Virus record (IMG/VR): IMGVR_UViG_3300017700_000721
Coordinates: 32,001-96,000 of that record
Source of the DNA: a virus
Taxonomy: Duplodnaviria; Caudoviricetes
Length of the DNA stretch: 64,000 nt
Direction: 5' to 3' (one strand)
Part shown: in pieces, positions 3,701 through 60,578 of the stretch
Layout: each line of letters starts with the position of its first letter
Numbering within the stretch: the stretch's first letter is position 1
The notes under the pieces: generated by a model
Told to the model about the DNA's origin: nothing
Database searches by the model: none
What the model saw: the letters and a program-made list of their open reading frames with translations, nothing else
Program-made: the position numbers and the translations under genes

Positions 3701-3928
3701 CAGAACCGGCTTCGGGTTCAGGATGAAGTGCTCATCCATTTCCTTCTCGTCCTGCAGCTGCAGGAAGTCACGGGTGTTTCCGCCCGTTAGAAATGTTCCT
3801 TCGATCTGGTTTTCCTCGGAGGTCATCGCCTGTTCGAGCGCTGACATCTCCTCGTACAAATCCTCGTTGACCTCCTCGACCGGGGTGGCGTTCACTTCGA
3901 GGGCGTCCACTGAGGGCTTGTCGGTCAT
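761..3928 (-). CDS. Large radical SAM protein, TIGR03960-like, with a C-terminal DUF2344/TIGR03936-like region
   Basis: IPIILVGG, IYGDGEE, GFYEP, GC-x8-CSFC, YRERS, EVSFFSL, FTLGVEG, LKFFQIVTGLE, late CGAC; ATG 3928 has GGAG 6 nt upstream. Confidence 0.75.
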   Translation of the reverse strand: MTDKPSVDALEVNATPVEEVNEDLYEEMSALEQAMTSEENQIEGTFLTGGNTRDFLQLQDEKEMDEHFILNPKPVLDGPPLLDFFRNNLHKFDSPYAYIGGEANSPDMERYQSAEVRILIARLSTYESVSLSMSHSLMAQIYGEEDYTFCDLAFLPKPNDYRLLLENNFPVWFGVGTKLKAHRFDVLSITHAVSMEQLNFVPLLHDSGIPLFKEQRMEREDIPIILVGGANSGTTAPLAGEFIASDGTKYSTLVDAVIYGDGEEAGKEFMRIVREGKQKGWSKREILRNCHGRVMGFYEPDCYVHEFDGKGSITSIRRKEGCDYAQFPVTRSNVDNLDTVRTLEQKILPYTGDGASVDVAIAGSVGCIGSAGWGACSFCREGSEGPYRERSLGKVMDALDNATRNQGTKEVSFFSLNFNQYSDFFPLVAESVKRGYKVGLISQRIDMLAETPEQVKVQRWLKKSNFTLGVEGISGRTRAYLNKNLQEWEILMCAAEMMKEGAGELKFFQIVTGLEQDHDVQEFCSLMEKVNALRQKLGASTRFRVSFTPLFPSAFTALQFAPCNAAIMHGTRSLDKLFGRAKELGWGRRLSVSGEEPLVSNTINHGGRNITGLLIQSHFKDGFRFYGNVPKGTWTRWAERVKRDPNIDLEITWGEKSFEYIFPWEDIAYSTSKEILWRGYVKAVAYQGVAYCLSTRTIKGVCHVNECGACDPDKDGKPNTALIKAIVGRRVAPTIPTEKISAAAQSREKSYHLRVLFRTTDPIYRFVMKGYFQYQIPRALMNVSKKFNDAFVGSIGHARIAAGANMAKDWTFGHNIYDFSLSSPVSESELRGMIAEANTYIREGEIIDIRMDTHLTVLRNDVDYAIYSMFIPNSGMSHARIRGDIERYFERKYEGKLGQIKIKKTQGKGVFVTIEQALGAKDVRQVTYQWMPDQRGTLVRMVISGNYNPMAMLEAVTGRKGFSWKAYPIYCDGYLQLAKETGETDVFAALAGEVQTCSVTGGPLEMDLFRGEKLKSGISLVADNGLDINYPVDMDVFFTRQLQAIDVGHELVAAE

Positions 3929-4099
3929 ATACAACTCCAGATGAGAGGATTGGGGCTTGCCGCTTCCGCGTTAACCTTGTTTGGTTAACAAGGTGCCCGT
4001 TCCAGCTATCCAATACCAGTGGAGGTGCTCAGTAGCAAGGGCTTAAACCCACCTCCCTTCCACGTGTTCCCAAGTTACATCCCTCGTAATAGAGCTAGA

Positions 4100-17550: not shown

Positions 17551-17579
17551 ATTATAGCATAGTCGGAGGGTGGTGTCAA
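17551..17579 (-). promoter_or_regulatory. Consensus sigma70 promoter for the ligase gene
   Basis: TTGACA-17 bp-TATAAT with extended TG. Confidence 0.85.
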
Positions 17580-20260: not shown

Positions 20261-20572
20261 CTAGTCCAGAAGGGTTGCCGCGAATGGCGACGGGTCGCTG
20301 TTTCCTACCAGGAGACCCAAAAGGCTGGCCTGATTGGCGTCGAGCTTCCCGAGGTTAGGGTTCAAGAGCACTTGAAGCTGCTCCGAGGAGCGTACAGCAT
20401 CAGGATACGGAGCATCCGGGAGTTCAGCCACCATCTGGTCGATGGAGTCACCCAAGATGGTGAAACCATCGCTCACGAGCACAGCCTTGCAACGTCGCTG
20501 GGCTGTGCAGTTCTTGCAGGCTGCAAGAGACTCGCCGCCGAAGAAACCAAAGCAGCTTTCCTTGGTCGTCAT
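20261..20572 (-). CDS. Small Cys-rich metal-binding protein
   Basis: CFG-x9-CKNC-x5-C. Confidence 0.55.
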   Translation of the reverse strand: MTTKESCFGFFGGESLAACKNCTAQRRCKAVLVSDGFTILGDSIDQMVAELPDAPYPDAVRSSEQLQVLLNPNLGKLDANQASLLGLLVGNSDPSPFAATLLD

Positions 20573-22293: not shown

Positions 22294-23447
22294 TTGCCCT
22301 TCGCCACCAAACCGTGGTTCTCGAGGATCTTCTTCGCAACGGCGCTGTTGTCGCGACCCATCCAGTTGAGGATGGCGCAACGGATAGCTTCCTCGCGGCC
22401 GAGTACTGGTTCCATGTCAAACACGTCGATCAGCTTGCGCGTCGAGATGGTGACAGGCAAGACACCGTCGCTGAACGACTTGCGGATCTCCATCGCGGCT
22501 TCCACAAACTTCTGGACCACCGCAGGATCACTGTCTGGAAACCGGGCTTTAAGCATGGCGATCTCCTTGTCCTTCGCCAGGTAGCCCACCGTCAGCTTGA
22601 TCGGGAAGCGGTCGAGCAGCGCGGTGTTCATCACCTCGGTGCCGGTGTACATTCCGCTGTCGTCACCTTTGCCACCCGTGTTGCCAGTCCCTACGACGGT
22701 GAACCCAGGCGAGGCTACAATCGTTTCGCCCGTCTCGGGGAGGTAAAGGGTACGCTTCTTCTCCAGAACGGGGTTCAAGACAGCCGCGATGCTGGCCGGG
22801 GTGTAGTCCATCTCGTCAATCAGCAGCGTGATCCCAAGCTTCATGGCAGTCGGAAGGGCGCCGTACATGAAGTAGGTTCCCTTCGACGGATCTGCGCGCA
22901 TCGATCCGATGAAGTTGCCCACGGTCACGTCGCCGTTCATGTTCACCCGCTTGAGCGGTCGGCCCAGCTGAGCATGGATCTGCTCGACACCGTCGGTCTT
23001 ACCGCAGCCAGTCGGACCTTCGATATAGACGTTCGATCCCTTCACGAGGCCGAAGGCAACGGCCTTCACGACGGCCGGCACGAAGACAAACTCGTTGTTG
23101 ATCGTCGGCACCATCCCCGCAATGGACGGGTCGACAGTGACCGGAAACTGCTTCTTCAGGTCAGTGAAGAGATCAGACGCAACTTCGGCTTGGAAGGCCT
23201 TCAGGAACGGCTCGAGGTCGTCGGAAGACTTGCTCTTCCGACCCACCATCCGGAGCAGCTCGGCCGTGATCGGCGACACAAGCGAAGCAGCTTGACCGAA
23301 CTCGTTCTTGTACTGGCCTGCACTCTTGCCGTGCTTATCTTGAAGATGCTTCACGAGCGAATGAGCCTGAAACCCACAGTATTTGCAGGATGGGCACGAG
23401 GCTGCCACTCGATCCCTGAATTCAGCTACTGTCAAAGTCCCGGCCAT
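22290..23447 (-). CDS. CobS/MoxR-like AAA+ ATPase with N-terminal C2H2 finger
   Basis: GPTGCGKT, LLIDEMD, TGNT, ALLDRF, STR; CKYC-x9-H-x4-H at the N-terminus. Confidence 0.9.
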   Translation of the reverse strand: MAGTLTVAEFRDRVAASCPSCKYCGFQAHSLVKHLQDKHGKSAGQYKNEFGQAASLVSPITAELLRMVGRKSKSSDDLEPFLKAFQAEVASDLFTDLKKQFPVTVDPSIAGMVPTINNEFVFVPAVVKAVAFGLVKGSNVYIEGPTGCGKTDGVEQIHAQLGRPLKRVNMNGDVTVGNFIGSMRADPSKGTYFMYGALPTAMKLGITLLIDEMDYTPASIAAVLNPVLEKKRTLYLPETGETIVASPGFTVVGTGNTGGKGDDSGMYTGTEVMNTALLDRFPIKLTVGYLAKDKEIAMLKARFPDSDPAVVQKFVEAAMEIRKSFSDGVLPVTISTRKLIDVFDMEPVLGREEAIRCAILNWMGRDNSAVAKKILENHGLVAKGK

Positions 23448-23471
23448 CAATCACTCCTTGAGAAGTGGTGT

Positions 23472-23500
23472 ATTATACCACGTCCCAATGGCGATGTCAA
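23472..23500 (-). promoter_or_regulatory. Consensus sigma70 promoter for the AAA+/vWA genes
   Basis: TTGACA-17 bp-TATAAT with extended TG. Confidence 0.85.
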
Positions 23501-24353: not shown

Positions 24354-26597
24354 TCAGGCTGCCAGCAGCATCTTGTCATACTCGCCCGCTGCGAGCTTGG
24401 CCAGGTCAATCTCCTTTTGGAGGCCCCAGACATCGCCCACCTTCGGGGCGACAGTGAGTTGAACCTGCCAGGTCTTGACCTCGAACTCCATGGCCTTCTT
24501 GATGATCGGAGCTACTTCCTGAACCAGCTCGTTCCGCACGAGGAACGCAAGCTCGTCATGGATCTGCATGGCGAAGGCCACGTCACGCCATTTGTAGCCG
24601 TGAAGCTTGAGAGCCTTGTCCACCTTCACCATCGCAATGCGCGTCACCTCAGCGGCGGTTCCCTGAATAGCGGTGTTCACCGCGGACCGATTGGCGAAAG
24701 CATGGATCTTCGGGTCGGGGTTATCATAGAACGACTTCAGGCTCCGCTTCCGACCGAAGAATGTGGTTGTGTAGCCGTTCTTCCTGGCAAAAACATGGAC
24801 CTTACCCATCCATCCGAATAGAACAGGGTGACCACGGACAAACCCGTCGTAGACCTGCTCGGCCGCGGCTCTGGGAATGTCAGCCTTAATAGCCAGAGTG
24901 TAGGCCGTTGCCCCGTAGAATGTTGCAAAGTTGAGCACCTTGCCCACGTCGCGCTTTCTCTTCTTCTCTTCCTTCGACAAGGCGTGGAATGTGTCAATCG
25001 GAATGCCATAAGCAGCGGCTGCCGTGAGAGAGTGGAGGTCATCTCCCTTGGCCAGAGCTCTGAGCCACCTAGGCTCGCCCGACATATTGGCACCAATGAC
25101 CAATTCCTGGCGGTCGTAGTCGAAGGAGAGTAGTTTGTAGCCCTTCGGAGCACGGAAGGCTTGGCGCACTGATGGGATCATCAGCACGCCCTTCTGTACT
25201 CGTCGCGTGGTGTCAATGTTGACTGACTCACACTGAGCTGGGCAGCCTACACACGTCTCGCGGATGCAAACAATAGGCTCGCGGCCTTCTTCGTCCTCAT
25301 CACCCTCTCTAGGGATGACATAAGGAAGGCTACGAACAACAGTCTGCCAATCAGCAGGAGCTTGAGGCGCTTCGCCAGGCTCTAGCCCTGCTCTCAGATC
25401 GATGAGGATGTCCGAGTCGTCAACCTGCGATATGTAATCGGCAGAGTCAGGCGTACCCTTCAAATCTACGGCCATCACTTCGCGAGCTTCGCCGTTAGAG
25501 ACGGCCTGAATGTTCACTCCTGTGGCGCCGTCGACGTCCGGATCACCGCCTGGGGCAGAGAACCTGAAAGTCGGAGCTGCAAAGGTGTTGAAGTTGAACC
25601 TAGGTTTGATCTCTCGATCGGAGAGTGCCTGTAGCTTATTGAAGTAGGAACTACGGGCCTTCACAATCTTCTTGTAAGCGATGATCGTCTCTACGATCGG
25701 ATTGGCTCGGGCGAGCTTCTCCAGCGCCTCTTCCTTGGTAACGTGGATTGGGTTCTTGCCCTTGGTCTTGCCTGGCGAAGGCAAGCCGCCCCGCTCGAAC
25801 AGAGCGTCGCCGAGCTGCTTAGGGCTGTTGATCTCGAAGGTGTAGCCGATCACCCGGAATATCTGCTCCCGCATGGTAGCAGCCCGGGTCTCAAGCATCG
25901 CCATCTGATTATCGATGTACTCCCGGTTGAGTTCCATCCCGCCGTTGTGTTCCATCCGGCGGACAATGTCGATGAGCAGGGTGTCAATCTGCACAGCCAT
26001 CGGGTTCTCAGTCGCAACGTAGGCGTAGTGATCCCACATCTGCATGCCTACGTCGGCGTCAGCACAGGCGTAGTCGGTGCATCGCTCCGGTGATTTGGTG
26101 GTAATATCCAGGCGACCTGCTTTGATCTCCTCGGGGGTGAAGAGGTCCTCGAACTTGGTCATGTCGATGCCCAAGTCTTCATGGGCCACCGTCTTCAGAC
26201 CAATCTTCTTCCGATCAGGGTCAGCTAGGTAGACAAGCTCAAGCGCATCGTTGAACTTGAAGTCAGGTTTCCACTTCAACCCCTTCTTGACCACCTGCAC
26301 CTGCAGGATGTTCAAGTCATACTTGGCGTTGTAGAAGATGGGGGTGTGAGACTCCATCTTCTCTTCCATGAGCTCCCAGACAGGCTCAAACGGTAGGTTC
26401 GCCTCGGGGTTCACTCGATGGTTAAATGGGACATAAAGGGCTGAGCCCTTCGCAAGAGACACTGACATTCCGGCAATGCCTGCGCGGCGAGTGTCAAGAC
26501 TCTTTGCCTCAGTATCCATCCCCATCTGGTTCTTGGGGTGGACTGTGGACAGATATTGCTTCACGTGGTCGAGTGACCTAGCTAACTCGTACGCCAT
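24354..26597 (-). CDS. polA: Family A DNA polymerase with 3'-5' exonuclease (likely replicative)
   Basis: ExoI DTE, ExoII YNAKYD, ExoIII YACAD; motif A FDYDRQE, motif B RDVGKVLNFATFYG, motif C QIHDE. Confidence 0.95.
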   Translation of the reverse strand: MAYELARSLDHVKQYLSTVHPKNQMGMDTEAKSLDTRRAGIAGMSVSLAKGSALYVPFNHRVNPEANLPFEPVWELMEEKMESHTPIFYNAKYDLNILQVQVVKKGLKWKPDFKFNDALELVYLADPDRKKIGLKTVAHEDLGIDMTKFEDLFTPEEIKAGRLDITTKSPERCTDYACADADVGMQMWDHYAYVATENPMAVQIDTLLIDIVRRMEHNGGMELNREYIDNQMAMLETRAATMREQIFRVIGYTFEINSPKQLGDALFERGGLPSPGKTKGKNPIHVTKEEALEKLARANPIVETIIAYKKIVKARSSYFNKLQALSDREIKPRFNFNTFAAPTFRFSAPGGDPDVDGATGVNIQAVSNGEAREVMAVDLKGTPDSADYISQVDDSDILIDLRAGLEPGEAPQAPADWQTVVRSLPYVIPREGDEDEEGREPIVCIRETCVGCPAQCESVNIDTTRRVQKGVLMIPSVRQAFRAPKGYKLLSFDYDRQELVIGANMSGEPRWLRALAKGDDLHSLTAAAAYGIPIDTFHALSKEEKKRKRDVGKVLNFATFYGATAYTLAIKADIPRAAAEQVYDGFVRGHPVLFGWMGKVHVFARKNGYTTTFFGRKRSLKSFYDNPDPKIHAFANRSAVNTAIQGTAAEVTRIAMVKVDKALKLHGYKWRDVAFAMQIHDELAFLVRNELVQEVAPIIKKAMEFEVKTWQVQLTVAPKVGDVWGLQKEIDLAKLAAGEYDKMLLAA

Positions 26598-27453: not shown

Positions 27454-27955
27454 TCTTCGCCTCTCTAACTCTATTATAACATATTTCGAGTGCTTTGTCA
27501 AGCTTTGATTTATCAGCCTGGCCGCGTTCGTAGGCCAGGAGCACCCGGTCAAAAGTCTCAGCTAGAGTGGCGTGCTCTCTCCTTGGGAGGTGGCGGGCTG
27601 TCTTTAGTACAGCCTCCACCTGGTTGCGCAACTTGGCGACTGTGTGGCGATCTGTTCGGTCATGCTCCTCCCCGAGGTCCACACCAAAGATCTTCTCCAG
27701 ATCCTTGAGTGAGTCCCTCCAAGGGACTCCATCGTTTACGTTCTTCACCTTCGCGTAGAACAGGTGAGGCGGTAGGGTGTAATCACACGAGAAGCAGTGC
27801 GCTAGGCTTGTCGTATGGTAAAAACCCGCAGAGGGGTCTCGGTCATCGTGAATTGGGCAGCAGAATGCAAACCGACCTGACTTCTCCAGGTAACTGATGC
27901 CCAGCAGCTTCAGTATCTGCTCAGGACTTATGAGCGGTTTCTGTTCGTGGTCCAC
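27305..27955 (-). CDS. Stand-alone primase CHC2 zinc-finger protein
   Basis: CPIHDDRDPS...AHCFSC; no TOPRIM domain follows. Confidence 0.85.
   Translation of the reverse strand: MDHEQKPLISPEQILKLLGISYLEKSGRFAFCCPIHDDRDPSAGFYHTTSLAHCFSCDYTLPPHLFYAKVKNVNDGVPWRDSLKDLEKIFGVDLGEEHDRTDRHTVAKLRNQVEAVLKTARHLPRREHATLAETFDRVLLAYERGQADKSKLDKALEICYNRVREAKNAFIDGQRIPETGPDAGIKEGAGNLPGSGPQANRRALAFEEPDESVDLD
27473..27501 (-). promoter_or_regulatory. Consensus sigma70 promoter inside the zinc-finger gene, serving the endonuclease gene and possibly polA
   Basis: TTGACA-17 bp-TATAAT with extended TG, about 20 nt before ATG 27453. Confidence 0.8.
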
Positions 27956-48144: not shown

Positions 48145-49515
48145 TTAGCCGCTAGCCTTGCCGATGTTGCGGAAGACCACGTTCTTCTTCGGAGCGAAGA
48201 CGATCGGGGTTCCATACAGCAGCTGCATCCAGCGGATAGACGGGCTCACGATGGCGAGCTGCATCTTGATCATGGGCGACAGCTGCTTGAAAGTCAGCGA
48301 CTGCTGGGTGAGGTCGAGCATCAGGCCGATGAAGGTGTTCGGACGATACACGTTCTGATCGTTCCAGACCGTGCTGTTCACGTACACGCCACCGGACTTC
48401 GCGCGCGGGACGACGTAGCCGATGAAGTAGGCCACCGCTCCGTTCTTCTCGGTACGATAGACCTTGTAGGCCGTCGCCGGGAAGGTACCGCCCTGGTCCG
48501 CGATCGTCAGCGGAACCATCTGGGTCGTGGCAACCGTGACGGCCGAGCTGAGGGCCGTGGCCGCCGACTCGCCGTACTGGTTGACCGCGCTCACCGCGTA
48601 CTTGTAGTCGCCGGCGTCCGTGGTCTTGAACTTCGGCGAGGCCGTTCCGGTCGCCGCAGCCGGCGTGACGGTCGGGGTGTTCGGCGCCTTGGTCGAGTTG
48701 GCCGACAGGGGCGGGGTCGTGCCGGTCTTCACGAACGTGTCCGGCTCGAAGCCAACCAGGCCCGAAGAGGTCTGGACGCTCGTGACGGGCGTGCCCACCG
48801 GGCCAACCTGACCAGCGGAGAAGCGCTGATACTGGTTGTAGTAGTTCGAGAAGTCCGAGAAGACCTTGTTGTTCGAGAAGAGCTTCATCGGCACGCCGAA
48901 GTTCTCGGCGACGAGGTAGGCTCCGAGCTCAACCTGCTCCTTGGTGAGCGGGGCGCCTTCGCAGTCGATGACGTGGCCTGCGCCACCTTCGATCTGCTTG
49001 GTGAGGCTGTTCCACTCGACCGGGACAGCATCGGCGTCGCCGTAGTAGAGGCCGTTGTTCGCCTTGCCCATCAGCCAGAGGGCGCCATTCGACGTCTCCT
49101 GGGCGATGATGTCGGCCGGCACGGTGCGCACGAGGGTCGCGGGGTGGTTGACGGCTCGGGTCGTGCCGAGGTACTTCACGAGCTGGTTCGTGCGCTCGTA
49201 AGTGCTGTCCTCTTCCTGCGGAAGCTCGCCGGACTGGGTGAAGCCGCCGCCCTGGCCGCCGTACTCGAGCAGGCGGTTGTATTCCTCGACGGTGGAATAG
49301 GCGTCCGTCTTCGGGATCATGTTCCACAGCTTGATGTTGGTCGCGCTGTAGGTGAGCAGCTTGAGCGTGGCTTCCAGGCTCTCGACTCGCAGGGCATCGA
49401 AGCCGGTGCCGGTCGCAGGCATCTGATAGCCGATGTCGAGCGCCTTACGCAGCTCGCCGAGGTCAGCAAGCGAGGAAACCCCGAAGCCTTCCTGCAGATT
49501 GATCTGACCTTCCAT
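48145..49515 (-). CDS. Major capsid protein, SPO1/Twort (Herelleviridae)-like type
   Basis: ALRVESLEATLKLLT, AYSTVEEY, VKYLG, YYGDA, QLSPMIKMQLA, LLYG..IVFAPKK; strongest codon bias; followed by a terminator. Confidence 0.9.
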   Translation of the reverse strand: MEGQINLQEGFGVSSLADLGELRKALDIGYQMPATGTGFDALRVESLEATLKLLTYSATNIKLWNMIPKTDAYSTVEEYNRLLEYGGQGGGFTQSGELPQEEDSTYERTNQLVKYLGTTRAVNHPATLVRTVPADIIAQETSNGALWLMGKANNGLYYGDADAVPVEWNSLTKQIEGGAGHVIDCEGAPLTKEQVELGAYLVAENFGVPMKLFSNNKVFSDFSNYYNQYQRFSAGQVGPVGTPVTSVQTSSGLVGFEPDTFVKTGTTPPLSANSTKAPNTPTVTPAAATGTASPKFKTTDAGDYKYAVSAVNQYGESAATALSSAVTVATTQMVPLTIADQGGTFPATAYKVYRTEKNGAVAYFIGYVVPRAKSGGVYVNSTVWNDQNVYRPNTFIGLMLDLTQQSLTFKQLSPMIKMQLAIVSPSIRWMQLLYGTPIVFAPKKNVVFRNIGKASG

Positions 49516-49563: not shown

Positions 49564-50208
49564 TTACTGACCGGCCACCTTCTTCTGCGCGGCCGCCAGG
49601 TCTGCATCGCTGATCTGGCCGGTGGACTCGAACTTGATGGCTGCGGTGAGCCACTGGTTGCTCTCGGGCGTGTTCGGCCCGAAGGACTTCGCGAGCTGCT
49701 CGAGGCCGAACGAGATCTGGCGGCGGGCGGCGGCCTTCTGCTCCGGCGTCATCTCAGCGGCGGTCAGGGCCTTGGCCGGGGTAAGCGACTTGTTGAGCAC
49801 CTCGGCCGGCTGGGCCGTGATGGTCTTCGGGGCGGCGACGGTGCCGTCACCCATCTTCTCGATGGCCGCGGTGTTCGCGTCGATCGACTTCTTCAGGTCC
49901 GTGAGCACCCGGATGTTCGCCAGGTTGAACTCGCGACCGTTGGTGATCGACTTCGCCATCGCTTCGAGCGAGCTGTCGATGTGGGCGCCGAACAAGGAGA
50001 CGACCTCGTTCAGGAGGTCCGAAACCTCGAGGCCCTTCAGGAGCGGAGCCGAGGCCTTGCCCTTGAGTGCGTCGATCGACTTGTTCAGCACCTGGACCTC
50101 GACGGTCGGCTCGGCAACGACCGCAACGGCGGCCGGCTTCGCGGTGAGATCATTGATCGACTTGAGGAGATCTTCCTCGGTCACAACGGCGGGGGTGGCG
50201 GTGGACAT
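49564..50208 (-). CDS. Scaffold-like head protein
   Basis: Between protease and capsid; Ala/Lys-rich; about 7 repeats of [LM]xK[SG]. Confidence 0.65.
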   Translation of the reverse strand: MSTATPAVVTEEDLLKSINDLTAKPAAVAVVAEPTVEVQVLNKSIDALKGKASAPLLKGLEVSDLLNEVVSLFGAHIDSSLEAMAKSITNGREFNLANIRVLTDLKKSIDANTAAIEKMGDGTVAAPKTITAQPAEVLNKSLTPAKALTAAEMTPEQKAAARRQISFGLEQLAKSFGPNTPESNQWLTAAIKFESTGQISDADLAAAQKKVAGQ

Positions 50209-50212
50209 TGAG

Positions 50213-51016
50213 TTAGCTCCTCGAGTTCGACTTGTAAAGGGTATATTTCACGACCTTACTCGCAAGGTCATAAGACCAGGCAGGCTTCTGCTTCAAGACG
50301 AAGAGAATGGCTTCGTCGTTGGTAAGCGGCCGGGACGCGGTGTCGCTCTTGGCCAGGATCTCTTGCTGAGCCTTGACCACTTCCTCTGCCACGTGCTTGG
50401 CAAAGTCTGCCGGCAAGCCCTCCGTCCCAGCCAGAGCATTGTAGGCTGCGAGGCTCTTGCACATCTTGACGAGGGTAAGCGGGTGCACCGGAGCGGCTGT
50501 CACGGCGACCCCGTGGACGAAGGCCTTCACGATGTTGCCGTTGCGCGTGTCGCGGGCGATCTTGCCGTCGAGTGACAGGCCCAGGCTTCCCTGGTCACCG
50601 TTGACCGACTTCATGATGTTACGGATCTCTACCGCCTTCGGGACGTGCTTGTAAAATTCCCCTTCCACGAAGACGGAGGCAGAGTCCGGCGCGTTTGGAA
50701 AGTCCGACTTGCGGAGGGCTTCCAGCTTGGCGGGGGTGATGATCGAAATTCCCGTCAGGAAACCCACCTGGTCGGCAGGCTGACGGGAATGGTCCCAATT
50801 GACGAAGCCACGCTGGGCGGCGTACGACAGGTCGAGGGACTTGCGCAGGATTGTGTCACCCTGCTGATCGCGGTTCTCGTCGGAAGCAATCCCCTGAAAC
50901 CGCCACGGACCTTCATCGCCTTCAGGCGCGATGGCCTTGAAGAGATCGGCCTTAAAGAGGGCTTCCGAGGGACCTTCACCTAGGCTCGGGTCGGTCGAGA
51001 TTTCCGATGTGAACAT
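50213..51016 (-). CDS. Prohead protease
   Basis: FQGIAS...DQQGD, GFVNWDH, LGLSLDG, VAVTAAPVHP. Confidence 0.85.
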   Translation of the reverse strand: MFTSEISTDPSLGEGPSEALFKADLFKAIAPEGDEGPWRFQGIASDENRDQQGDTILRKSLDLSYAAQRGFVNWDHSRQPADQVGFLTGISIITPAKLEALRKSDFPNAPDSASVFVEGEFYKHVPKAVEIRNIMKSVNGDQGSLGLSLDGKIARDTRNGNIVKAFVHGVAVTAAPVHPLTLVKMCKSLAAYNALAGTEGLPADFAKHVAEEVVKAQQEILAKSDTASRPLTNDEAILFVLKQKPAWSYDLASKVVKYTLYKSNSRS

Positions 51017-51068: not shown

Positions 51069-52052
51069 TTAACATGGCGAGTCTGGACCGTAGATCTTCC
51101 GGATGGCGGATATTATCAGGAGCTCGTGGGCCGGTATTTCCTCGCCGTGACCATGACTTTTCAGCATGTCGGCAGAGGTTGTCAGCGGCGTGATTGAGGA
51201 TTGCCTCTTGAGGGACTTCTCCATCCTCTCTTCCATCGCTGAGGCCAGAGCTCTGTCAACCCGCGGTTCGTTCTGGCTCGCCATGTACAGGATACAATAG
51301 CAATGAGGGTGCACGGGCCCAATCGTGAATTGCCATGCGTAGGCCGGGACTCCCCAATTGCTGTTTCCGATCACGTCGGAAAGGCGGTACATCTTCGGTG
51401 AGCCGTCTGAGTTCGTGTGGAGGTCCAGGCAATAGTCACACGCGGCTGGCCTGGGCACCTTGTACACTAGCTCGTCTTCGTCCTTGTCTACGATTTGTCC
51501 TTGCTGGAAGTAGCTGTGAAGCTCGGTCTGCAAAAGACGGTCGATCTGGCTCGTAAAGGACTCTGTTTCGCCTGTAAGGGCGGACACTAGCTCGGTCAGC
51601 GCAGAGTTGCGGGCAACAGATCGGGCAGCAGCGTCTACAAATGTCCCTTTGACTAACACTGAACGCCAATCACGGTCAGCGTTTGCTATAGCCAGTCTGT
51701 ATTTGGATTGAACAGCGTCCGTGCGGCTTTCCAGCCAACGCTCGGTGTCGTTGCGCATCTGCGCAAGATGAGCCTTCTCTCGATCGTTCAGCTGGACGTT
51801 GTTATTGTAAACCCACTGGGCGATCTGATCCTTGCTCATGGTCTTCAGGGCGTTAGGGCCCAGAAGAGAGGCTACCTTTCCCGCCATGTAACTCTGCTCG
51901 AGCACTGTCATCCGAGACGTTGAGACTGCTGACGAGATGGCGGTCGGGATTGTCTGACCAAGGCCACGGCCAATTGTGTAGGCCGAGAAGGCGCTTCCTA
52001 GCGCCCTCAAGACCGACATGATGCGACCCTCGGTTTCCCGGCCGAGCAGCAT
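51069..52052 (-). CDS. MuF/SPP1 gp7-like minor head protein
   Basis: QTEL, ACDYC, GPVHPHCYC. Confidence 0.7.
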   Translation of the reverse strand: MLLGRETEGRIMSVLRALGSAFSAYTIGRGLGQTIPTAISSAVSTSRMTVLEQSYMAGKVASLLGPNALKTMSKDQIAQWVYNNNVQLNDREKAHLAQMRNDTERWLESRTDAVQSKYRLAIANADRDWRSVLVKGTFVDAAARSVARNSALTELVSALTGETESFTSQIDRLLQTELHSYFQQGQIVDKDEDELVYKVPRPAACDYCLDLHTNSDGSPKMYRLSDVIGNSNWGVPAYAWQFTIGPVHPHCYCILYMASQNEPRVDRALASAMEERMEKSLKRQSSITPLTTSADMLKSHGHGEEIPAHELLIISAIRKIYGPDSPC

Positions 52053-52388: not shown

Positions 52389-52555
52389 GTGTCGGACTCC
52401 AGCTCAGGATCTTCAATAACTTCTTCCAGTCTTCCGCCCATAGCAAGATAGAGCTCTTTCGCCTTCCTCCAAAAGGCATCCGTCCACTTCGGACGTTCTA
52501 AACCCGCCTTCTTCAAGGCTAAGTTCCACAGTTGAGGGCTTCTAATCCAGCTCAC
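52385..52555 (-). CDS. Small hypothetical protein (56 aa)
   Basis: Not in track; manual translation MSWIRSPQLWNLALKKAG...FWRKAKELYLAMGG...; GTGA and ATGA overlaps at both ends. Confidence 0.65.
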   Translation of the reverse strand: MSWIRSPQLWNLALKKAGLERPKWTDAFWRKAKELYLAMGGRLEEVIEDPELESDT

Positions 52556-53028
52556 GTCTTCTTCGTCAGCCTCACACGCTGCTCGCGAGTCACCGAGCCA
52601 CGCTTCAGGATCTTGCTGAGGACCTGCTCGTATTTGTTGTCGGTGTTGGCCACGATGCCCAGGTCGATGCAGCTGATCATAACCTCCTCGCCATCTCCTG
52701 GAGGAGAGTCAGGGGTGTCAACCTTGACCGCCCGGCAATAGACCTGCGGCGCTCGAACAACCGGCATATTGGTCACGTGCCAGATACCTTCGAACCCAGA
52801 GGCTTGGGTCTCGAAGACGGTGCCCACTCGACCCAGCCAATCGAGGTCAAGGTCGTTACCTTCGATCTTCTCGTTGTAAGCTGAGTTGTACTGCCGGACG
52901 TCGCCGAACTGCTGCTCTTCCCCACGTAGGTTCCGGGCGTAGTCATTGGGATTGATGGTGTCGGGGTCGATTGAACGATAATCGTGCTTGTTGAACCCCA
53001 TCGTAGCGGGATCCCAGTTCTTTGACAT
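52552..53028 (-). CDS. Hypothetical protein
   Basis: GGAGG RBS; TATTAT element upstream. Confidence 0.6.
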   Translation of the reverse strand: MSKNWDPATMGFNKHDYRSIDPDTINPNDYARNLRGEEQQFGDVRQYNSAYNEKIEGNDLDLDWLGRVGTVFETQASGFEGIWHVTNMPVVRAPQVYCRAVKVDTPDSPPGDGEEVMISCIDLGIVANTDNKYEQVLSKILKRGSVTREQRVRLTKKT

Positions 53029-53102
53029 CAAACGACCTCCATGATCTTCCTATAATACCCTCAGTCTAACCTTGTTAGATGCTCGAGAGGGCGGAGAGGA
53101 GG

Positions 53103-55721
53103 TTACTTGGAAATGGCTTTCCAGTTAAGACCGGCTCTGGTGTCCACCTTGAAGGGCAGAAAACCCGGAAGCGGCTGATGGAACTTCTCCAAGCTGATCT
53201 CTCGGACCTTCTCCACGAGTTCGTTCTTCACCACAAAGATGAGCTCGTCATGCATCTGCAGACCCAGGCGAACGTCATCAAAGGAATAATCCTTCCTGAG
53301 GGTGTTGAAGATCTGTGCCTGCCTAATCTTCAGGATCTCGGCGGCGGTGCCAGCGTTGTGATGGTGCCAGGCAGTCTTCCGGAAACCGTGAAGAGCAGGA
53401 CCGCGAGCCGTCTTGATCCCCGGTAGGTACCTGGTCCGGCCGAAGCGGGTTGAGACAGATCCCGTCTTGGCGGCTGCTGAGAGAATGTTCTCACGATACT
53501 GGTCAGCCAGAGAGGCACGGGCCTTGTATCCAGCAATGATCTTCGCGGCCTCTGGCATGGCGATGCCGAGACGTTTAGCCAGGATAAACTCCTGCATGAG
53601 GTACAACAAGGCGAAGTTGATCGTCTTGCCAGCCTGGCGCTTGTCTGGGTTATGAAGGTCAACGCCGGGCGCGGCAGCCATTACCTCGTCGTACATCTGG
53701 ATGTGAAAGTCTACCCCGTTGACGAAAGAGGCTGACAGCACTGGGTCACCTGACAGGCTGGCCCAGGTGACGTACTCGGCCTGGCCCAGGTCGTTAGACA
53801 GAAGGGTGTAACCCGAGGGGGCTTCGATCGTCTCCCGAATAGGGACAACCCGGTTCTGTAGGTTGGGGCTGTCCGCAGTGTACCGACCATGAGGTTGACC
53901 GTACTGGTTCCAGTTCGTCTGGACGGAGCCGGCGTTGGCGTAAGGCTCCCATTCCTTGAGCTGAGATAGAGTCGACTGGGATCCGCGAGCCTCCATGATC
54001 GCACCCGCGATCGGATAGCCCATCGCGTCCAGCGCCTGGAGGGTGTCGTCGTCCGTCGAGGCCTTCCCTCCCTTGCTGATGCGCTGGGTTGGGAGGTTCA
54101 TCACCTCGAACAGGATGCGAACGCAGTCGCCGGGCGCGTGGGGACGGAACTCCTCTCCGGCAAGCTCGTGACAACGAGCTACCAGCCGATCCGTCTCTTT
54201 CTGCTGAGCCTCCAGGTTCCGCTGCCAGGTCTCCTTGTTGACGACAAGGGCCGTTCGGTTCATCTCCTCCGTCATCGGCTCGAGGTTGTGCTCGATCTTC
54301 GACGAGTTCGACCCGGCTGGCAAGATGACGTCGAACTTCTCGATGCGGATTTCCTGCATGGTCTCATTATACTCTGTTTTGGACTCGGTGTCAAGTCCTA
54401 ATTTACCTTCACCCGCCCTGCGGATCTGGGTCGGATCTTCCACTGTCCTGTAGGATCCGTCCTCGCGGACTACCTTCACGATGCCGTTCTCAGTCCGCTT
54501 GACTTTCGCCGGATGCCACTGACCCTTCGAGTCACAAATCTCGACTTCAGAGTCGTCCGGGTACGCACCGGTTACAGTTCCAACTGTCAACAACGTATCC
54601 TCTCGAGGCGGGCGGCCCTTGAAAGCCTGAGCGTAGAGTTCCTCGAAGCTAGGCAGCTTGACCTTTGCTCCGTCTTCCTGTATATACTGAATAGTAAGCT
54701 TGAGGGCCTCGCGAGCTTCGTCGCGCATCCCTTCCCAACGAGCCTCAACCATTGCAGCTAACTCAAAAGATGCCTCCGCAATCGCTTCCATTCGTTGCCA
54801 TTTCGCGTTGTCGCGAATGGCTCTGTTGGCTGCGTCCGGAGACAGGTCTGAGACCTCGACGTACATCTCGCCCCAGAGGGCTGTGCGCTCCTCGTCTTTC
54901 ACCTTAGCCCTGTGACGGGCCTCAATCTCTTCAGTGCTCTTGTCTCCGGAGACAAGCGTCTGTAGGGCCTCCGGTGTGTACTTCCGGGCCTTCTCGGCGA
55001 TGGGCTCAAACCTTGAGGGGAGGGCATAAACCTGGGTTTGCAGGACCAGGCTAGCTAACGTCTCAGCTTCTTTCAGATCCTGAAAGGGCGAGGGGTCACT
55101 GTCTAGTGGGAACACCTCGTCAACCCAGAAGACCTTGCAAAGAAGGGCTGGGACTTGCATAGCCATTGCCGCGAAGCAGGTTGCATTGCCCGAAAGAGCC
55201 CAGAATGTCTGGGTCCCCTTCACCGCAATAAGTGACGGTACTCGCATTTTCCCGCTGAGGGCGTCGCTAAGCTCAGCAGCGTCAAACCCACCGTAGGTGA
55301 TAGCGTGCGTAGGTACAGTCGCTTCGTCGTAATCCTGACCAATGTCACCTTTTCGCATTAGTGACGGGTCTTGGTTCAGACGGCCGTGATCCCACGTGAT
55401 CTGGGCTATCACGCCCTTCACGTACTGATCAGAGATCTGCTTCAGGTTGTTGGGAGCGTCGTGTTCTTCCCGGCGAGCGTAATCCCTCAGAGCCTGCTCG
55501 TAAGCCCCTTCGATCCTCTCTTCGTGTAATGACTTCCTCATGAGGGACCCTTCGATGGCTCCCTCGTCCGGATCTGGAGGAGCTTCGTGGATGTCCCTCT
55601 TGATCAACTCCAGAACCATCGCCACCGTAGCTTTAAGGTCAAGCCTGGCTTGCTTTTCGAGCTCGTCTAGCGACTTGTAAGGAAGCTTACGACGCTTCAC
55701 CTTTAGCTTGTTGCGGGCCAA
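53103..55721 (-). CDS. Second family A DNA polymerase: 454-aa non-exonuclease N-terminal extension plus a 418-aa polymerase domain
   Basis: HGRYTADSPNLQN, motif A NDLGQAE, motif B RQAGKTINFALLY, motif C QMHDE; TTG start 12 nt after the portal stop with AGGAGAAG RBS. Confidence 0.9.
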   Translation of the reverse strand: MARNKLKVKRRKLPYKSLDELEKQARLDLKATVAMVLELIKRDIHEAPPDPDEGAIEGSLMRKSLHEERIEGAYEQALRDYARREEHDAPNNLKQISDQYVKGVIAQITWDHGRLNQDPSLMRKGDIGQDYDEATVPTHAITYGGFDAAELSDALSGKMRVPSLIAVKGTQTFWALSGNATCFAAMAMQVPALLCKVFWVDEVFPLDSDPSPFQDLKEAETLASLVLQTQVYALPSRFEPIAEKARKYTPEALQTLVSGDKSTEEIEARHRAKVKDEERTALWGEMYVEVSDLSPDAANRAIRDNAKWQRMEAIAEASFELAAMVEARWEGMRDEAREALKLTIQYIQEDGAKVKLPSFEELYAQAFKGRPPREDTLLTVGTVTGAYPDDSEVEICDSKGQWHPAKVKRTENGIVKVVREDGSYRTVEDPTQIRRAGEGKLGLDTESKTEYNETMQEIRIEKFDVILPAGSNSSKIEHNLEPMTEEMNRTALVVNKETWQRNLEAQQKETDRLVARCHELAGEEFRPHAPGDCVRILFEVMNLPTQRISKGGKASTDDDTLQALDAMGYPIAGAIMEARGSQSTLSQLKEWEPYANAGSVQTNWNQYGQPHGRYTADSPNLQNRVVPIRETIEAPSGYTLLSNDLGQAEYVTWASLSGDPVLSASFVNGVDFHIQMYDEVMAAAPGVDLHNPDKRQAGKTINFALLYLMQEFILAKRLGIAMPEAAKIIAGYKARASLADQYRENILSAAAKTGSVSTRFGRTRYLPGIKTARGPALHGFRKTAWHHHNAGTAAEILKIRQAQIFNTLRKDYSFDDVRLGLQMHDELIFVVKNELVEKVREISLEKFHQPLPGFLPFKVDTRAGLNWKAISK
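54366..54394 (-). promoter_or_regulatory. Perfect sigma70 promoter internal to the second polymerase gene
   Basis: TTGACA-CCGAGTCCAAAACAGAG-TATAAT-GAGACC-ATG (in-frame Met455 at 54359). Confidence 0.85.
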
Positions 55722-55733: not shown

Positions 55734-57212
55734 TTAGGAGTCCAGCTCCTGGGTGATGTCTACGTCGCGACCGTCTGGATCGTCGGTGGCCTCGGTCGGC
55801 TCTTCAAGGTTCTGGTCCTGCTTCGCCTGGAGCTCTTCCGCTTCCATCTTGTCCAACCTAGCAGTATACAACGGATCAAGGATGATGTCTCCCGCCTTCA
55901 GCGGCGGCTCGTTGCGGTCTGCGCGAATGTCATTCACTGTCCGGAACGATTTGACCTCGGAGTTGATGATCTCCGAGTCAATCTTCCGATCCTCGTCAAG
56001 ACCCAGGAATTCCAGACGATATCGAGGATCGATCTTCTGGATCAGATTGGTGTTGAGGTTGTTCGCCAGAAATGTCAGCAACGGGCGTAGGCCACGCTGC
56101 TTTGAGACGGCCTGCTTCTGAGGCCCTGAGCTGTCGAAGGTGACGGCTGCGCCAGACTGGCCAATCTGCCAGTTGATCTCCGTAGGGTCAATCTGATAAA
56201 CCCCGCAGGCCTGTTTGACCAGGAAATCAAACATCATGGAGTATTCCATGTCACGGTTTGAGCGGTCAAGCTCCTTCCAATCAACCTCACCATCCTTGCC
56301 AATCTTCAGCACCGGAGGGTTCCAGGCGTGAGCTGCGTTGCGGATAGCCTGCCGGAAATCACGCTTGAAGACTTGGAACTGGGTGTCATCAACGTCACCC
56401 TTCACGATCATTACACCTTTGGCAGTTCCGCCCTGGGTCAGCTGACCGGCGTTGAACTTGTCGGCGTTCAGCATTGTCGTGATGGTTCGAACCAGGATCT
56501 CAAGTTCAGAGTACCCGTAGCCCATCATCTGGATGTTGGTCTGCGGGTTACGCACACCAAAGATCATCTCCTTGCGGGAATACTCTGCTACAATACGCTC
56601 GTGGAGCACCTGCACGTACCAAGGGTCATCAGACAGAGGATCCGACGCCTTCGAGAGCGATGCCTTCAGCTTACGAATGGTACCAGCATCTACGGCCACA
56701 ACGTAGGAAGGCAGACCGTTGCGGCGACTCACAATCTCGGCGTTGGCCTGGTCAAGCTCCAAACTGTCTCGCATGAACTGTCGGGTAAAGTCCTCCAGCG
56801 AGGCTTCACCGTAGCCCACGGTTCCCATCGTGTAGATCCAATCACGGAGGGCAAGGGTCTTGGCGTTGTCCTTCTTGGCGGCGTTGTCATCGCTGACGAT
56901 CTCGTACCCCAGAGTGTAGCGCTGGGTCCGGGGGGTGCAGAAAGCAGCCACCTGGTTCAGCCGGGTCTGGATGATGGACCCAATGATGGGGTTCTTGGCC
57001 ATCGCGCGCAGGTCGTAGGTCGACAGTGCAGACTGGGGGCGCTGCATCCACTCCGGACCCATGAACATGGTCAGCGGATCGTAGAACGTTGTCTGAGGTT
57101 CATGTGCCCGATCACGGATCTGCTCGATCGCCTTCTCGATCCGTTCCTCTACGATGGCGGCACCGAAGGAGTCCCCGATGATCGTCCTTACGCGCTGACC
57201 TAGCGAGGGCAT
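55734..57212 (-). CDS. Portal protein
   Basis: Follows TerL; IIQTRLNQV, RDSLELDQ, GVRNP, GYGYSELE, NRDMEY, CGVYQIDPTEI, GLRPLL, RTVNDIR. Confidence 0.9.
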   Translation of the reverse strand: MPSLGQRVRTIIGDSFGAAIVEERIEKAIEQIRDRAHEPQTTFYDPLTMFMGPEWMQRPQSALSTYDLRAMAKNPIIGSIIQTRLNQVAAFCTPRTQRYTLGYEIVSDDNAAKKDNAKTLALRDWIYTMGTVGYGEASLEDFTRQFMRDSLELDQANAEIVSRRNGLPSYVVAVDAGTIRKLKASLSKASDPLSDDPWYVQVLHERIVAEYSRKEMIFGVRNPQTNIQMMGYGYSELEILVRTITTMLNADKFNAGQLTQGGTAKGVMIVKGDVDDTQFQVFKRDFRQAIRNAAHAWNPPVLKIGKDGEVDWKELDRSNRDMEYSMMFDFLVKQACGVYQIDPTEINWQIGQSGAAVTFDSSGPQKQAVSKQRGLRPLLTFLANNLNTNLIQKIDPRYRLEFLGLDEDRKIDSEIINSEVKSFRTVNDIRADRNEPPLKAGDIILDPLYTARLDKMEAEELQAKQDQNLEEPTEATDDPDGRDVDITQELDS

Positions 57213-57249: not shown

Positions 57250-58740
57250 TTAGCCAAAGTCAGCGGAGAAGGTTGTGGCACGCGAAGCTACGAGCGCATG
57301 CCAGATGGCCATAACCACGTCGTCGTGGGTGGTCTCGTTGCCAATCCTACCGTGTCGCTGCTGAATACCGTTGAACTCCGTAACGATGTAGTCAGTCATG
57401 ATACGGTCTTGGTCGGTCTTGTACGGGAACCTGAACTGTAGGTTCTCAAACAGCGGGCGGATCGAGAGAAGACCTGTCTCCATCGACCTCTTGTTCTGAC
57501 CCGTCACGGTGTGGCCTCGAACAGGCATCCGACTCTTGTTCTTGAAGTGCTCCCGGTAAAGGCCTTGGAACATGTTGTCTTCAAGAAAGCCCAGGGTTAC
57601 TTGGTACATTTGGCAGTAGTATTCAATCTGGTTGATCTGCTCCTGCATGAACTGAGGGCGGGCTCGCCAATAGTTCAGAAGTGTGTAAAGGTTCGCGCTC
57701 TTGTCGTACTCCAAAGCTACGATAGCGGTCCAGTCGCCGTCGTTAGATCCCGGTACTGAAAAGTCCACCCCCAGGAAGACAGGGTTTCCACCTGTATAGT
57801 TCCTGGAGTAGGATAGCTGGCGGTCAAACAGTGGCTCGAGAAGGCTCGTCGGGAAGATCGTGGTCTCGTCCGAGAGCGGCTTGTTCATATACTCCTTGGA
57901 GAAGGAGAGACTGCCGACCTTCCGTCGGATAGCCATCAGATCTTCTGCAGAGTAACGATCGGCCCACAGTGGAATGGTCATCGCCTCGTCGACGAAAGCG
58001 GCGAGCTTTGCTCCCGTGTACTCACCTCCCTGGAGCTGCTCGTGATACATATCGTCGGTATCTTGGGCGGTGCCCACCGTAACAATCTGCGACTTGAACC
58101 CTTGAAGGCGGACCTTGGCGGTGCCCTTGTCCTTCATGGGGAAGACCACTTCGTTGAAGCGAGTCTTCATCATCTTCCGCACGTCAGCTGACCAGCTGTT
58201 CTTTTCGTTCAGCACGTCGTCCAGTAGGATCAGCTGCGGATGGCGGCCACGCAAAGGCGACATGAAACCCTTCGCCTTGATGACCTTCTGGTTCCCCAGC
58301 TGCATCTCGGTTCGGGAGTCAGGGCCGTGCGATCGTCCTTTCGGGAGAAGGGGCCAAAGAGACTCCCGATTGTTCATCAGGATCTTCATCTTGTCCAGGT
58401 TCTCGACGGCGGTCGGCTGGTCAGGACCAAGGATCAAGATGTCTTGTACCCAAGGATCGTACTTCGCCTTCCAGAGGGCATAGGCTCTGATCAGCGAGTG
58501 ACTCTTCCCGTGATCTCGAGGGGCCATCTCTATCACGTCATCGCCCGTCTTCAGGTGATCCCACCAGATCTTATGCTGAGGACCAATCTCAAAGCCCAGC
58601 TCCACCTTCTGGAAGACTAGGAAGTTGGTCCTACACAGCTGCCGGACAGCGTGTTTAATCCCTGCGGCGTTACCGCCCAGGAAGGCTCCGGCTGCTTTCG
58701 ACTGGCTAGTGCCGGGCCGAGGGAGGTGGTAAAAGGTCAT
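57250..58740 (-). CDS. Terminase large subunit
   Basis: Walker A APRDHGKS, RGRHP, Walker B ILLDD, VGT, nuclease LGVDF, HDDVVMA. Confidence 0.93.
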   Translation of the reverse strand: MTFYHLPRPGTSQSKAAGAFLGGNAAGIKHAVRQLCRTNFLVFQKVELGFEIGPQHKIWWDHLKTGDDVIEMAPRDHGKSHSLIRAYALWKAKYDPWVQDILILGPDQPTAVENLDKMKILMNNRESLWPLLPKGRSHGPDSRTEMQLGNQKVIKAKGFMSPLRGRHPQLILLDDVLNEKNSWSADVRKMMKTRFNEVVFPMKDKGTAKVRLQGFKSQIVTVGTAQDTDDMYHEQLQGGEYTGAKLAAFVDEAMTIPLWADRYSAEDLMAIRRKVGSLSFSKEYMNKPLSDETTIFPTSLLEPLFDRQLSYSRNYTGGNPVFLGVDFSVPGSNDGDWTAIVALEYDKSANLYTLLNYWRARPQFMQEQINQIEYYCQMYQVTLGFLEDNMFQGLYREHFKNKSRMPVRGHTVTGQNKRSMETGLLSIRPLFENLQFRFPYKTDQDRIMTDYIVTEFNGIQQRHGRIGNETTHDDVVMAIWHALVASRATTFSADFG

Positions 58741-59969: not shown

Positions 59970-60578
59970 TCAGTGTACGACTCTAATGTTGAAATTGTGA
60001 TCCAGCAACAGTATCAACCCCAATTGCTTGTACCATTTGTCAGGGTCTTTAGGCTCAAGATCGGCCAGCTTGTTCTTGGTCTTCGTAAATATCCACTTCA
60101 CTGTTGACTGGCGGACGTCATGCTTCTTTCCCACCATCTCTTGGTTCAGCCAATAGAACAGGTCGAAGAGGATGTCCTTTTCCTTCTCTTTCAAGAAGTA
60201 GAGCTCGCCTAGGACGGCACGGAGAGGGATGTCCGCAATCGTCATCAGGTAGCGTAGCTTGATAATGGTTCGGCGGTAGCGATACGAGACGGTTGGCTGA
60301 GAGATCCCAAGGAGGACCGCAATGTCCTTCTGGTGCTTCTTCTTCTCGTAGATCAGCCAGAAGATCTCTGCCTCTAGCTCTGGCAGGAACTTCATCAGCG
60401 GCTTGACTTCCATGTCCAGATAGAACCCAGACGGATGGGCGTCCGCGATGTCCTGAGCGTCAAGGTAATCGAGTGTCGCCGGGTCTACGGGAAAGAATAT
60501 CTCCCGTTGGTAAACTGTGTCTAGGTTCTCTGATGCGACGATGCCTTGGCCCGCCGCGTGTTGCTTACGCACTACCAT
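59970..60578 (-). CDS. Regulator with tandem sigma70 region 4-like HTH domains
   Basis: QKDIAVLLGISQPTVS and QEMVGKKHDVRQSTV. Confidence 0.7.
   Translation of the reverse strand: MVVRKQHAAGQGIVASENLDTVYQREIFFPVDPATLDYLDAQDIADAHPSGFYLDMEVKPLMKFLPELEAEIFWLIYEKKKHQKDIAVLLGISQPTVSYRYRRTIIKLRYLMTIADIPLRAVLGELYFLKEKEKDILFDLFYWLNQEMVGKKHDVRQSTVKWIFTKTKNKLADLEPKDPDKWYKQLGLILLLDHNFNIRVVH

Follow-up and report, generated by a model that had tools for sequence, protein, structure and literature searches.

A second family A DNA polymerase gene in the head module

The window analysed here is the whole 64,000-nucleotide (nt) stretch at positions 32001-96000 of the complete 118,081-bp uncultured virus record IMGVR_UViG_3300017700_000721, and its subject is a single minus-strand open reading frame (ORF) that joins an N-terminal head-module domain to a family A DNA polymerase domain directly behind the portal gene. 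The 118-kb genome holds exactly two PolA genes—this head-module polymerase and a proofreading PolA—so that an earlier, sequence-only reading of the locus was right that a complete polymerase with a 3′-5′ exonuclease lies elsewhere (24354-26597). The start of the gene was likewise placed correctly, 12 nt after the portal stop: the portal TAA occupies 55736-55734 and the TTG start of the polymerase gene lies at 55721. The elements that define the locus are as follows, with lengths and positions of proteins in amino acids (aa).

55734..57212, minus strand: portal gene (Pfam Phage_portal, phrog_12), closely coupled to the N-domain gene
55732-55728, minus strand: Shine-Dalgarno AGGAG, 6 nt before the TTG start and 1 nt past the portal stop, read from the sequence
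53103..55721, minus strand: whole gene, 872 aa, N-terminal head-module domain plus family A polymerase domain, a single ORF by translation
53103..54359, minus strand: polymerase domain (thumb, palm and fingers) without exonuclease, aa 455-872, from Pfam and PDB sequence searches
24354..26597, minus strand: the other, proofreading family A polymerase, 747 aa (Pfam DNA_pol_A and DNA_pol_A_exo1)

The polymerase domain is complete. Pfam DNA_pol_A (PF00476) matched aa 502-868 with 200.7 bits against a cut-off of 34.3, over profile positions 7-380 of 381, and the alignment to the Klenow fragment spans aa 475-868, which is the whole polymerase domain. Its best solved relatives are the large fragments of E. 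coli Pol I (Klenow), Taq and Bst (E 7e-39 over aa 475-868), with which it shares all three catalytic motifs as well as R668, R754, K758, F762 and Y766; it differs from them in having neither a 3′-5′ exonuclease nor a 5′ nuclease domain, in an identity of only ~30% and in changed helix-Q residues. In the Klenow alignment, motifs A, B and C read D-L-G-Q-A-E, R-Q-A-G-K-T-I-N-F-A-L-L-Y and H-D-E. The equivalents of Klenow D705, E710, R754, K758, F762, Y766, D882 and E883 are kept and show little or no variation among the 17 members of the family alignment, in which D644, R695, K699, Y707, D825 and E826 of the polymerase itself do not vary. In Pol I, N845, Q849 and R841 contact the minor groove and the template base. 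Here, the positions of N845 and Q849 are taken by H and A within an invariant family motif, W-H-H-H-N-A-G-T, and that of R841 by K. Since the residues for catalysis and for binding deoxynucleoside triphosphates are retained and these three positions are altered, the head-module polymerase is likely active and probably less discriminating.

A search with Pfam found no match to the 3′-5′ exonuclease domain (PF01612) in the 872-aa protein; the place of that domain is indeed taken by a 454-aa extension, as first proposed, which folds into unrelated domains. An AlphaFold2 (AF2) model of the polymerase domain reached a predicted local distance difference test (pLDDT) score of mostly 80-95, and in the full-length model both halves were separately confident, without confident docking between them (predicted template modelling score, pTM, 0.50). 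A maximum-likelihood tree of polymerase domains placed all head-module polymerases in one group (SH-like approximate likelihood ratio test, SH-aLRT, 95) that includes neither bacterial Pol I nor the phage's own PolA. A recent duplication of the latter was ruled out, as the two share ~30% identity over part of the domain and fall into separate clades.

A perfect promoter embedded at the domain boundary

The disordered linker between the two halves of the protein contains a promoter and, just past it, a candidate start codon.

54394-54366, minus strand: internal perfect sigma-70 promoter, TTGACA-17-TATAAT, matching at 12/12 positions, in the disordered interdomain linker
54357..54359, minus strand: in-frame ATG (Met455), 6 nt past the -10, the predicted +1 of a leaderless mRNA for a 418-aa form

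Perfect TTGACA-N17-TATAAT promoters number 17 in the genome, where chance would give 0; each lies on the coding strand, and a TGn extended -10 is present in 15. Those within the window lie at 17551-17579, 23472-23500, 27473-27501 and 54366-54394. Perfect promoters flank the ~28-kb structural block on both sides and the one in the polymerase linker is the only one inside it; a phage sigma-like gene (59970-60578) stands at the head of this block. The arrangement suggests that host sigma-70 may serve the early and middle genes, and the phage factor the late ones.

Wherever a related locus covers the domain boundary (13/13), a perfect promoter with a spacer of 16 or 17 nt (TTGACA-N16/17-TATAAT) stands at the beginning of the polymerase domain, even though the amino acids it encodes change: the -10 hexamer is read as Y-N, G-I-I or D-I-I, depending on the locus. 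Between the window and a 73%-identical relative, the spacer differs at 8/17 positions. In locus L002 the -10 is translated as G-I-I rather than Y-N, in L008 both hexamers stand in another phase and position, and in L006 a leucine has become phenylalanine with TTGACA kept. Spacer divergence, altered codon phases and the L006 substitution together argue that selection acts on the promoter DNA; judged from these alignments, the promoter is conserved by selection at the DNA level.

The expected transcription start coincides with a start codon, ATG or GTG, 5-7 nt after the -10 in L001-L007 and in the split locus L009, and in the fused L008 an in-frame GTG and ATG follow 10 and 13 nt downstream. An alternative start of the short form by a Shine-Dalgarno sequence at Met483 or Met487 was considered and is unlikely, the GGAG spacing being too short. 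The best-supported part of our interpretation is that one gene likely gives two products, a free early enzyme and a late fusion protein, as read from promoter and start-codon placement.

Other occurrences of this promoter class may be recorded here. The L010 contig has two identical perfect promoters (5156, 5842), 686 nt apart and each followed by an ATG after 6 nt, which may be a direct repeat with leaderless genes. Outside the window, at 97126-97154 of the genome, a perfect promoter is followed after 6 nt by ATG AGC AAT, opening an ORF of only 5 codons; these first codons are kept in the 73%-identical relative (L001 1377).

The N-terminal extension defines an unnamed protein family

Alignments and structure models divide the extension into four recognisable parts.

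55533..55721, minus strand: conserved basic N-terminus V-K/R-R-x-K/R-L-P-F/Y plus helix 16-46, aa 1-63, candidate targeting propeptide (alignments, AF2 model)
55107..55364, minus strand: degenerate ParB/sulfiredoxin-like domain, aa ~120-205, without the GxxR arginine
54624..55076, minus strand: helical core, aa 216-366, signature Y-x-L-P-S-x-x-E-P-x-A-E-x-A-R
54417..54554, minus strand: Tudor/SH3-like beta-barrel, aa 390-435 (Foldseek, VIA)

The model of the extension, built with 27 family members (pLDDT 84.8, pTM 0.67), begins with a helical hairpin and further shows a disordered loop at aa 54-65, a helix at 61-86 and a disordered linker at aa 440-454. A weakly ParB-like segment at ~aa 140-200 and a Tudor/SH3-like one at ~aa 390-435 had been suspected from the letters alone, and model and fold searches back both, the former as a fold over ~aa 120-205. 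For this segment, Foldseek returned a ParB/sulfiredoxin (Srx) protein from BFVD (template modelling score, TM, 0.69 over 98 aa; E 7.6e-4) and, from the PDB, Noc/ParB (E 1e-3 to 1e-2) and sulfiredoxin (TM 0.5), and the atlas led to ParB/Srx clusters at 0.83-0.84. A Pfam search gave no ParB (PF02195) match for the extension, and the nucleotide-binding GxxR arginine is absent: the position reads G-N-A-T here and G-x-x-x without arginine across the family. The five-stranded barrel matched the Tudor domains of PHF1, PHF19 and PHF20 (Foldseek TM 0.77-0.82; root-mean-square deviation 1.2-1.7), with VIA Z 8.1-8.4 and a Pfam Agenet match at E 0.07, a fold that by itself says nothing on the ligand. A wide fold search of the extension with VIA yielded Tudor-type matches and generic helical hairpins only. 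In the helical core, Y232, E239, P240 and R246 are invariant in the family.

Up to E <= 10, Pfam returned for the extension only noise from Agenet, Myosin_N and Bestrophin, and at E <= 0.1 there were no PHROG matches either for the 872-aa protein or for 9 stand-alone relatives. The possibility that the extension is a MuF/SPP1 gp7 minor head protein (PF04233) was rejected, as neither Pfam nor PHROG matched. A full HMMER scan with the N-terminal 470 aa retrieved 36 representative clusters, about half of them polymerase fusions of 800-917 aa and the rest proteins of 190-520 aa without polymerase. By homology, the extension belongs to an unnamed family of portal-coupled head-module proteins that also occurs without polymerase. 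The stand-alone members come mostly from Logan assemblies; related-locus searches returned none for P0074 and P0086 among viral contigs and none for P0069 among metagenome contigs, and no isolate phage genome encodes a relative of the N-domain.

A conserved candidate prohead-protease site

The sequence-only reading had pointed to two copies of SLMRK in the extension, and these exist with the codons given for them: TCC CTC ATG AGG AAG at aa 59-63 and TCA CTA ATG CGA AAA at aa 120-124. Below, an arrow marks the presumed point of cleavage.

55530..55544, minus strand: candidate prohead-protease site L-M-R-K↓S, aa 60-64, in a disordered loop (pLDDT <50 over aa 54-65)
55350..55364, minus strand: second SLMRK, aa 120-124, not conserved and in a structured region, probably not a site
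50213-51016, minus strand: prohead protease (phrog_1028), with the scaffold the richest ORF in [LMIVF]-x-K-[SAG]
49564-50208, minus strand: scaffold-like protein, 214 aa, second richest ORF in [LMIVF]-x-K-[SAG]

The density of [LMIVF]-x-K-[SAG] per 1000 aa is 41 in the protease and 33 in the scaffold-like protein as against 3.6 over 146 genome ORFs, which makes these two the top 2 of the 146 with an enrichment of 9-11 times. The scaffolds of nine relatives hold 5-8 copies each, and SPO1 gp3.3 holds 11 (L013, 7287-9460). The capsid proteins all carry E-L-R-K↓A-L-E-I-G near residue 24, the lysine being residue 23 in SPO1; in Herelleviridae, about 23 residues are removed from the capsid protein. 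Enrichment in scaffold and protease and the match at the capsid propeptide thus identify L-x-K↓S/A as a likely cleavage motif, probably that of the SPO1-type prohead protease lineage.

The motif at the first site is present in 12/17 fusion proteins, in 21/27 N-domain relatives and in three mini N-proteins, within a stretch that is otherwise variable and full of insertions and deletions. Only this first copy is credible, since the second is structured, reads ARLRT in the nearest relative (P0002, 73% identity) and belongs to an insignificant repeat. The proposed match to a head-protein cleavage motif thus holds for the first site—conserved, in a disordered loop and of the type enriched in scaffold and protease—and fails for the second. 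The idea that SLMRK is a duplication kept at the protein level was rejected, since 27% of shuffled versions of the protein contain some 5-mer more than once and the second copy is unconserved.

Relatives keep the polymerase behind the portal gene

At least twenty relatives keep a proofreading-less second polymerase directly behind the portal gene, usually as a fusion. Among 5.8 billion clustered proteins there is one full-length near relative, P0002, with 73% identity, 872 aa and the same synteny. Scanning viral contigs with family-specific polymerase motifs gave 11 loci, and the family alignment of fusions comprises 17 sequences. The search for portal-adjacent PolA genes that had been recommended was therefore productive: the order large terminase (TerL), portal, N-domain plus polymerase, a 159-aa protein (g159), a 327-aa protein (g327), protease, scaffold and major capsid protein (MCP) recurs over the 11 viral contigs, most of which cover only part of it, and in all 11 the gene belongs to the virion module between portal and protease. 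Identity to the window is 52-59% for the portal, 52-57% for the polymerase domain of fused forms and 26-29% for the N-domain.

Coupling to the portal gene is close in most of the family. In six relatives the start of the N-gene overlaps the portal stop by 1-17 nt, whereas gaps of 12 and 300 nt separate the two in L001 and L002, respectively. In L016 and L017 the gene that overlaps the portal stop codes for a mini N-domain of 190 aa in which the ParB-like and Tudor parts are missing and the helical core, the L-S-K-S loop and the N-terminal helix are retained. L010 has only ~84 extra residues beyond the polymerase. The L007 contig opens with the end of the polymerase and closes with the N-domain, as if a fragment of a related genome had been assembled in circularly permuted form.

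The surrounding head module is of the SPO1 type (Herelleviridae): SPO1-like phages have a portal and a major capsid protein with 34-40% identity to those encoded here, a similar capsid N-terminus, and a scaffold in which L-x-K-S is likewise frequent. In SPO1, however, portal, protease, scaffold and capsid genes follow one another with nothing between, whereas here a block of ~4.6 kb that includes the polymerase gene is inserted; the tail, too, differs from that of SPO1-like phages in being of the long non-contractile type. Since the SPO1 portal gene is directly followed by those for protease, scaffold and capsid, we read the block as a clade-specific insertion.

The position of the gene also bears on another explanation, that of a packaging or maturation polymerase. 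In this view, the long form would bind to the portal or prohead while DNA is being packaged, and its fill-in or strand-displacement synthesis would serve the genome ends, for instance by regenerating terminal repeats or mending terminase cuts; it would not be an injected effector, whether or not it stays in the particle. T7-type terminal-repeat genomes need DNA synthesis at concatemer junctions, a gene placed between terminase and portal on one side and the remaining head genes on the other, and coupled to the portal gene, would suit this role, and so would a Pol I-type domain without proofreading, apt for short repair synthesis. Yet the 123-bp repeat at the genome ends may only reflect a circular assembly, binding to portal or terminase would have to be assumed, and the lineages with a split gene would require non-covalent recruitment. 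We regard this explanation as improbable.

Two probable products, one of them possibly carried in the virion

Our preferred explanation assigns the two products to different stages of infection. Late, read-through from the portal gene and translation from the TTG after the portal stop would yield the 872-aa protein, whose N-terminal 454 aa would bring about its entry into the prohead. After cleavage at L-M-R-K↓S by the prohead protease, with loss of the first ~63 residues, an exonuclease-less Pol I-type DNA polymerase would be carried in the capsid and leave with the DNA. Early or in the middle phase, host sigma-70 RNA polymerase would start at the linker promoter, and a leaderless mRNA beginning at Met455 would give the free 418-aa polymerase, acting in the cytoplasm alongside the replication genes of the same promoter class. 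On the DNA, the enzyme might fill gaps, repair ends or synthesise on a damaged or modified template. We give this explanation as a whole—two products, with the long form packaged, trimmed and ejected—a probability of roughly 0.42.

Portal coupling and a conserved protease-type site in a disordered loop are consistent with prohead entry, trimming after K63 and travel with the DNA. Equally consistent with packaging are the existence of separate N-domain genes that follow the portal and the fact that polymerase and N-domain stay in frame, across a disordered linker of variable length, in 22/28 sampled lineages. On these grounds we consider virion packaging of the long form plausible, if not something to be relied upon. 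For the clade at large, the corresponding statement—that it packages an active DNA polymerase by means of a portal-coupled head-protein fusion, trims it and delivers it with the genome, with a free form made from an embedded early promoter—can be put forward only tentatively.

Several observations weigh against this explanation. The first concern the separate genes. In L015, L016, L017 and L019 the polymerase is a stand-alone gene of ~420 aa with the same perfect promoter and a normal Shine-Dalgarno leader, beginning at the residue homologous to Met455, and in L009 one base in the promoter spacer puts a shortened N-part and the polymerase into different frames. Relatives with two separate genes, named at the outset as a finding that would speak against a packaged polymerase, thus exist in five cases (L009, L015, L016, L017, L019), although the window gene itself is a single ORF and most relatives are fused; with these five, covalent delivery is not essential to the clade. 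Fused and split forms are interspersed in the tree: the best tree has 3 changes and one change is also allowed, which agrees with a fused as well as with a split ancestor.

The same pattern could be read as a fusion without a function of its own: the stop between a head-module gene and an adjacent early polymerase gene would have been lost, only the short polymerase and the N-part would matter, and the full-length protein would be a side product without harm. Both states occur, possibly with several switches, and L009 has the look of a frame change by 1 nt within the promoter spacer. Under neutrality, however, a stop in the linker would be harmless, and 22/28 lineages, down to ~25% N-domain identity, nevertheless keep the frame open through a disordered linker rich in insertions and deletions. 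A neutral fusion is therefore very improbable in our view.

Further points that tell against packaging concern expression and the extension itself. The polymerase domain has its own early-type sigma-70 promoter in every lineage, which would make the free cytoplasmic form the universal product and weakens the case for a virion-borne one. The start after the promoter is GTG in four loci, and GTG is a weak leaderless start in E. coli, which bears on the short product. The 872-aa protein overall carries the protease motif at background density (3 in 872 aa), and the repeat once taken as sign of a kept protease motif is lost as an argument. The extension has no detectable similarity to any known head protein in Pfam, PHROG, isolate-genome and fold searches, and its ParB-like and Tudor/SH3-like folds occur more typically in proteins that bind nucleic acid or other proteins than in those of capsids. 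Finally, all family members are metagenomic and uncultured.

Most of these points would fit a purely cytoplasmic enzyme of which nothing is packaged, with the N-domain (ParB-like plus Tudor/SH3-like) as an accessory that binds DNA or protein and so directs or ties the polymerase to phage DNA, for instance at ends, nicks or sites of replication and repair, and with the portal-side position a historical one, that of an early cassette in a late operon. The ever-present early-type promoter, the split lineages, binding modules as the only recognisable folds and an N-domain unlike known virion proteins all agree with this explanation, and fusion or adjacency is equally expected of an enzyme and its accessory factor. 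Against it, most of the family has the N-domain gene overlapping the portal gene or close behind it, inside a late operon and with no sigma-70 promoter of its own; the minimal 190-aa form, which retains the helical core, the N-terminal helix and the L-x-K↓S loop, is devoid of both binding folds; and the protease-type site, conserved within a disordered loop, is left without a role. On balance, we hold a purely cytoplasmic enzyme to be unlikely.

Neighbouring genes

On the minus strand, the genes run in the order large terminase, portal, polymerase gene, ORFs of 159, 56, 111 and 327 aa, protease-like, scaffold-like and major capsid protein, with the tail genes after the last.

57250-58740, minus strand: large terminase, neighbour of the portal gene
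48145-49515, minus strand: major capsid protein (phrog_752)

Directly after the polymerase gene lies that of the 159-aa protein g159 (52552-53031), adjacent in most relatives at 44-87% identity and without a known family, which could be a partner of the polymerase. In the split-gene lineage (L015 1701-3281; L016 5267-6811; L017 2682-3566), a fusion of an RmlD-like reductase/epimerase and an S-adenosylmethionine (SAM) methyltransferase replaces g159 after the polymerase. The 327-aa protein (51069-52052) has a conserved C-terminal motif, C-x-x-C ... H-P-x-C-Y-C, recalling MuF/gp7; Pfam and PHROGs gave no match to it, nor did Pfam to seven orthologues. The polymerase gene had been described as lying between portal and MuF/protease, of which the portal and protease neighbours are correct and the MuF label is not upheld, the Cys/His motif being its only basis. 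In the non-structural part of the genome, the window also encodes a 1057-aa radical-SAM protein and a pair of MoxR-type AAA and CobT-like VWA proteins (761-3934, 20569-23450).

Significance and comparison with known systems

If the long form is packaged, it would be the first virion-borne DNA polymerase in tailed phages, as far as our literature search reaches: a search for virion-borne or encapsidated DNA polymerases in phages returned nothing relevant, and a report on polymerase swapping makes no mention of head-module polymerases (PMC11348598). A capacity for DNA synthesis would then enter the cell before any gene expression, pointing either to a new counter-defence or to incoming DNA with gaps, nicks, damage or modifications. 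Should packaging not occur, the locus still offers a clean natural case of a promoter within a coding sequence that is conserved at the DNA level, splitting one gene into a predicted late fusion protein and early free enzyme at the very domain boundary marked by relatives with separate genes. The analysis moreover defines an unnamed family of portal-coupled head-module proteins, and the probable L-x-K↓S/A cleavage motif of SPO1-type prohead proteases may be used for annotation.

The predicted expression of the short form resembles that of Shigella virF, where one gene is reported to give two proteins by way of an internal transcription start and a leaderless mRNA for an N-terminally shortened product (PMC5101355). 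Compared with virF as described there, the promoter here is of perfect consensus, is conserved at the DNA level across a phage clade and separates two autonomous domains.

The heads of tailed phages are known to contain RNA polymerases, anti-restriction proteins and toxins. The closest parallel to a packaged enzyme is the virion RNA polymerase gp50 of coliphage N4, a packaged and injected polymerase whose packaging was shown by experiment. As proposed here, both are nucleic-acid polymerases encoded among virion genes and carried in the capsid for entry; they differ in that N4 uses an RNA polymerase, whereas the present enzyme is a DNA polymerase whose packaging we infer only and which would also be made from an early promoter. 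In the MuF polymorphic toxins, which are MuF/SPP1 gp7 minor head proteins bearing effector domains at the C-terminus, it is likewise a portal-adjacent head-module protein that carries an enzymatic domain behind it. The carrier here is not MuF, a possible MuF-like gene lying separately at 51069-52052, and it bears a DNA polymerase. T4 internal proteins and Alt have N-terminal capsid-targeting sequences that gp21 removes, and ejection proteins of phiKZ and SPN3US have propeptides. With these the long form shares an N-terminal segment followed by a site that matches the phage's own prohead-protease motif, although the site is a predicted one here and its motif is the L-x-K↓S/A of the SPO1-type head module in place of L/I-x-E.

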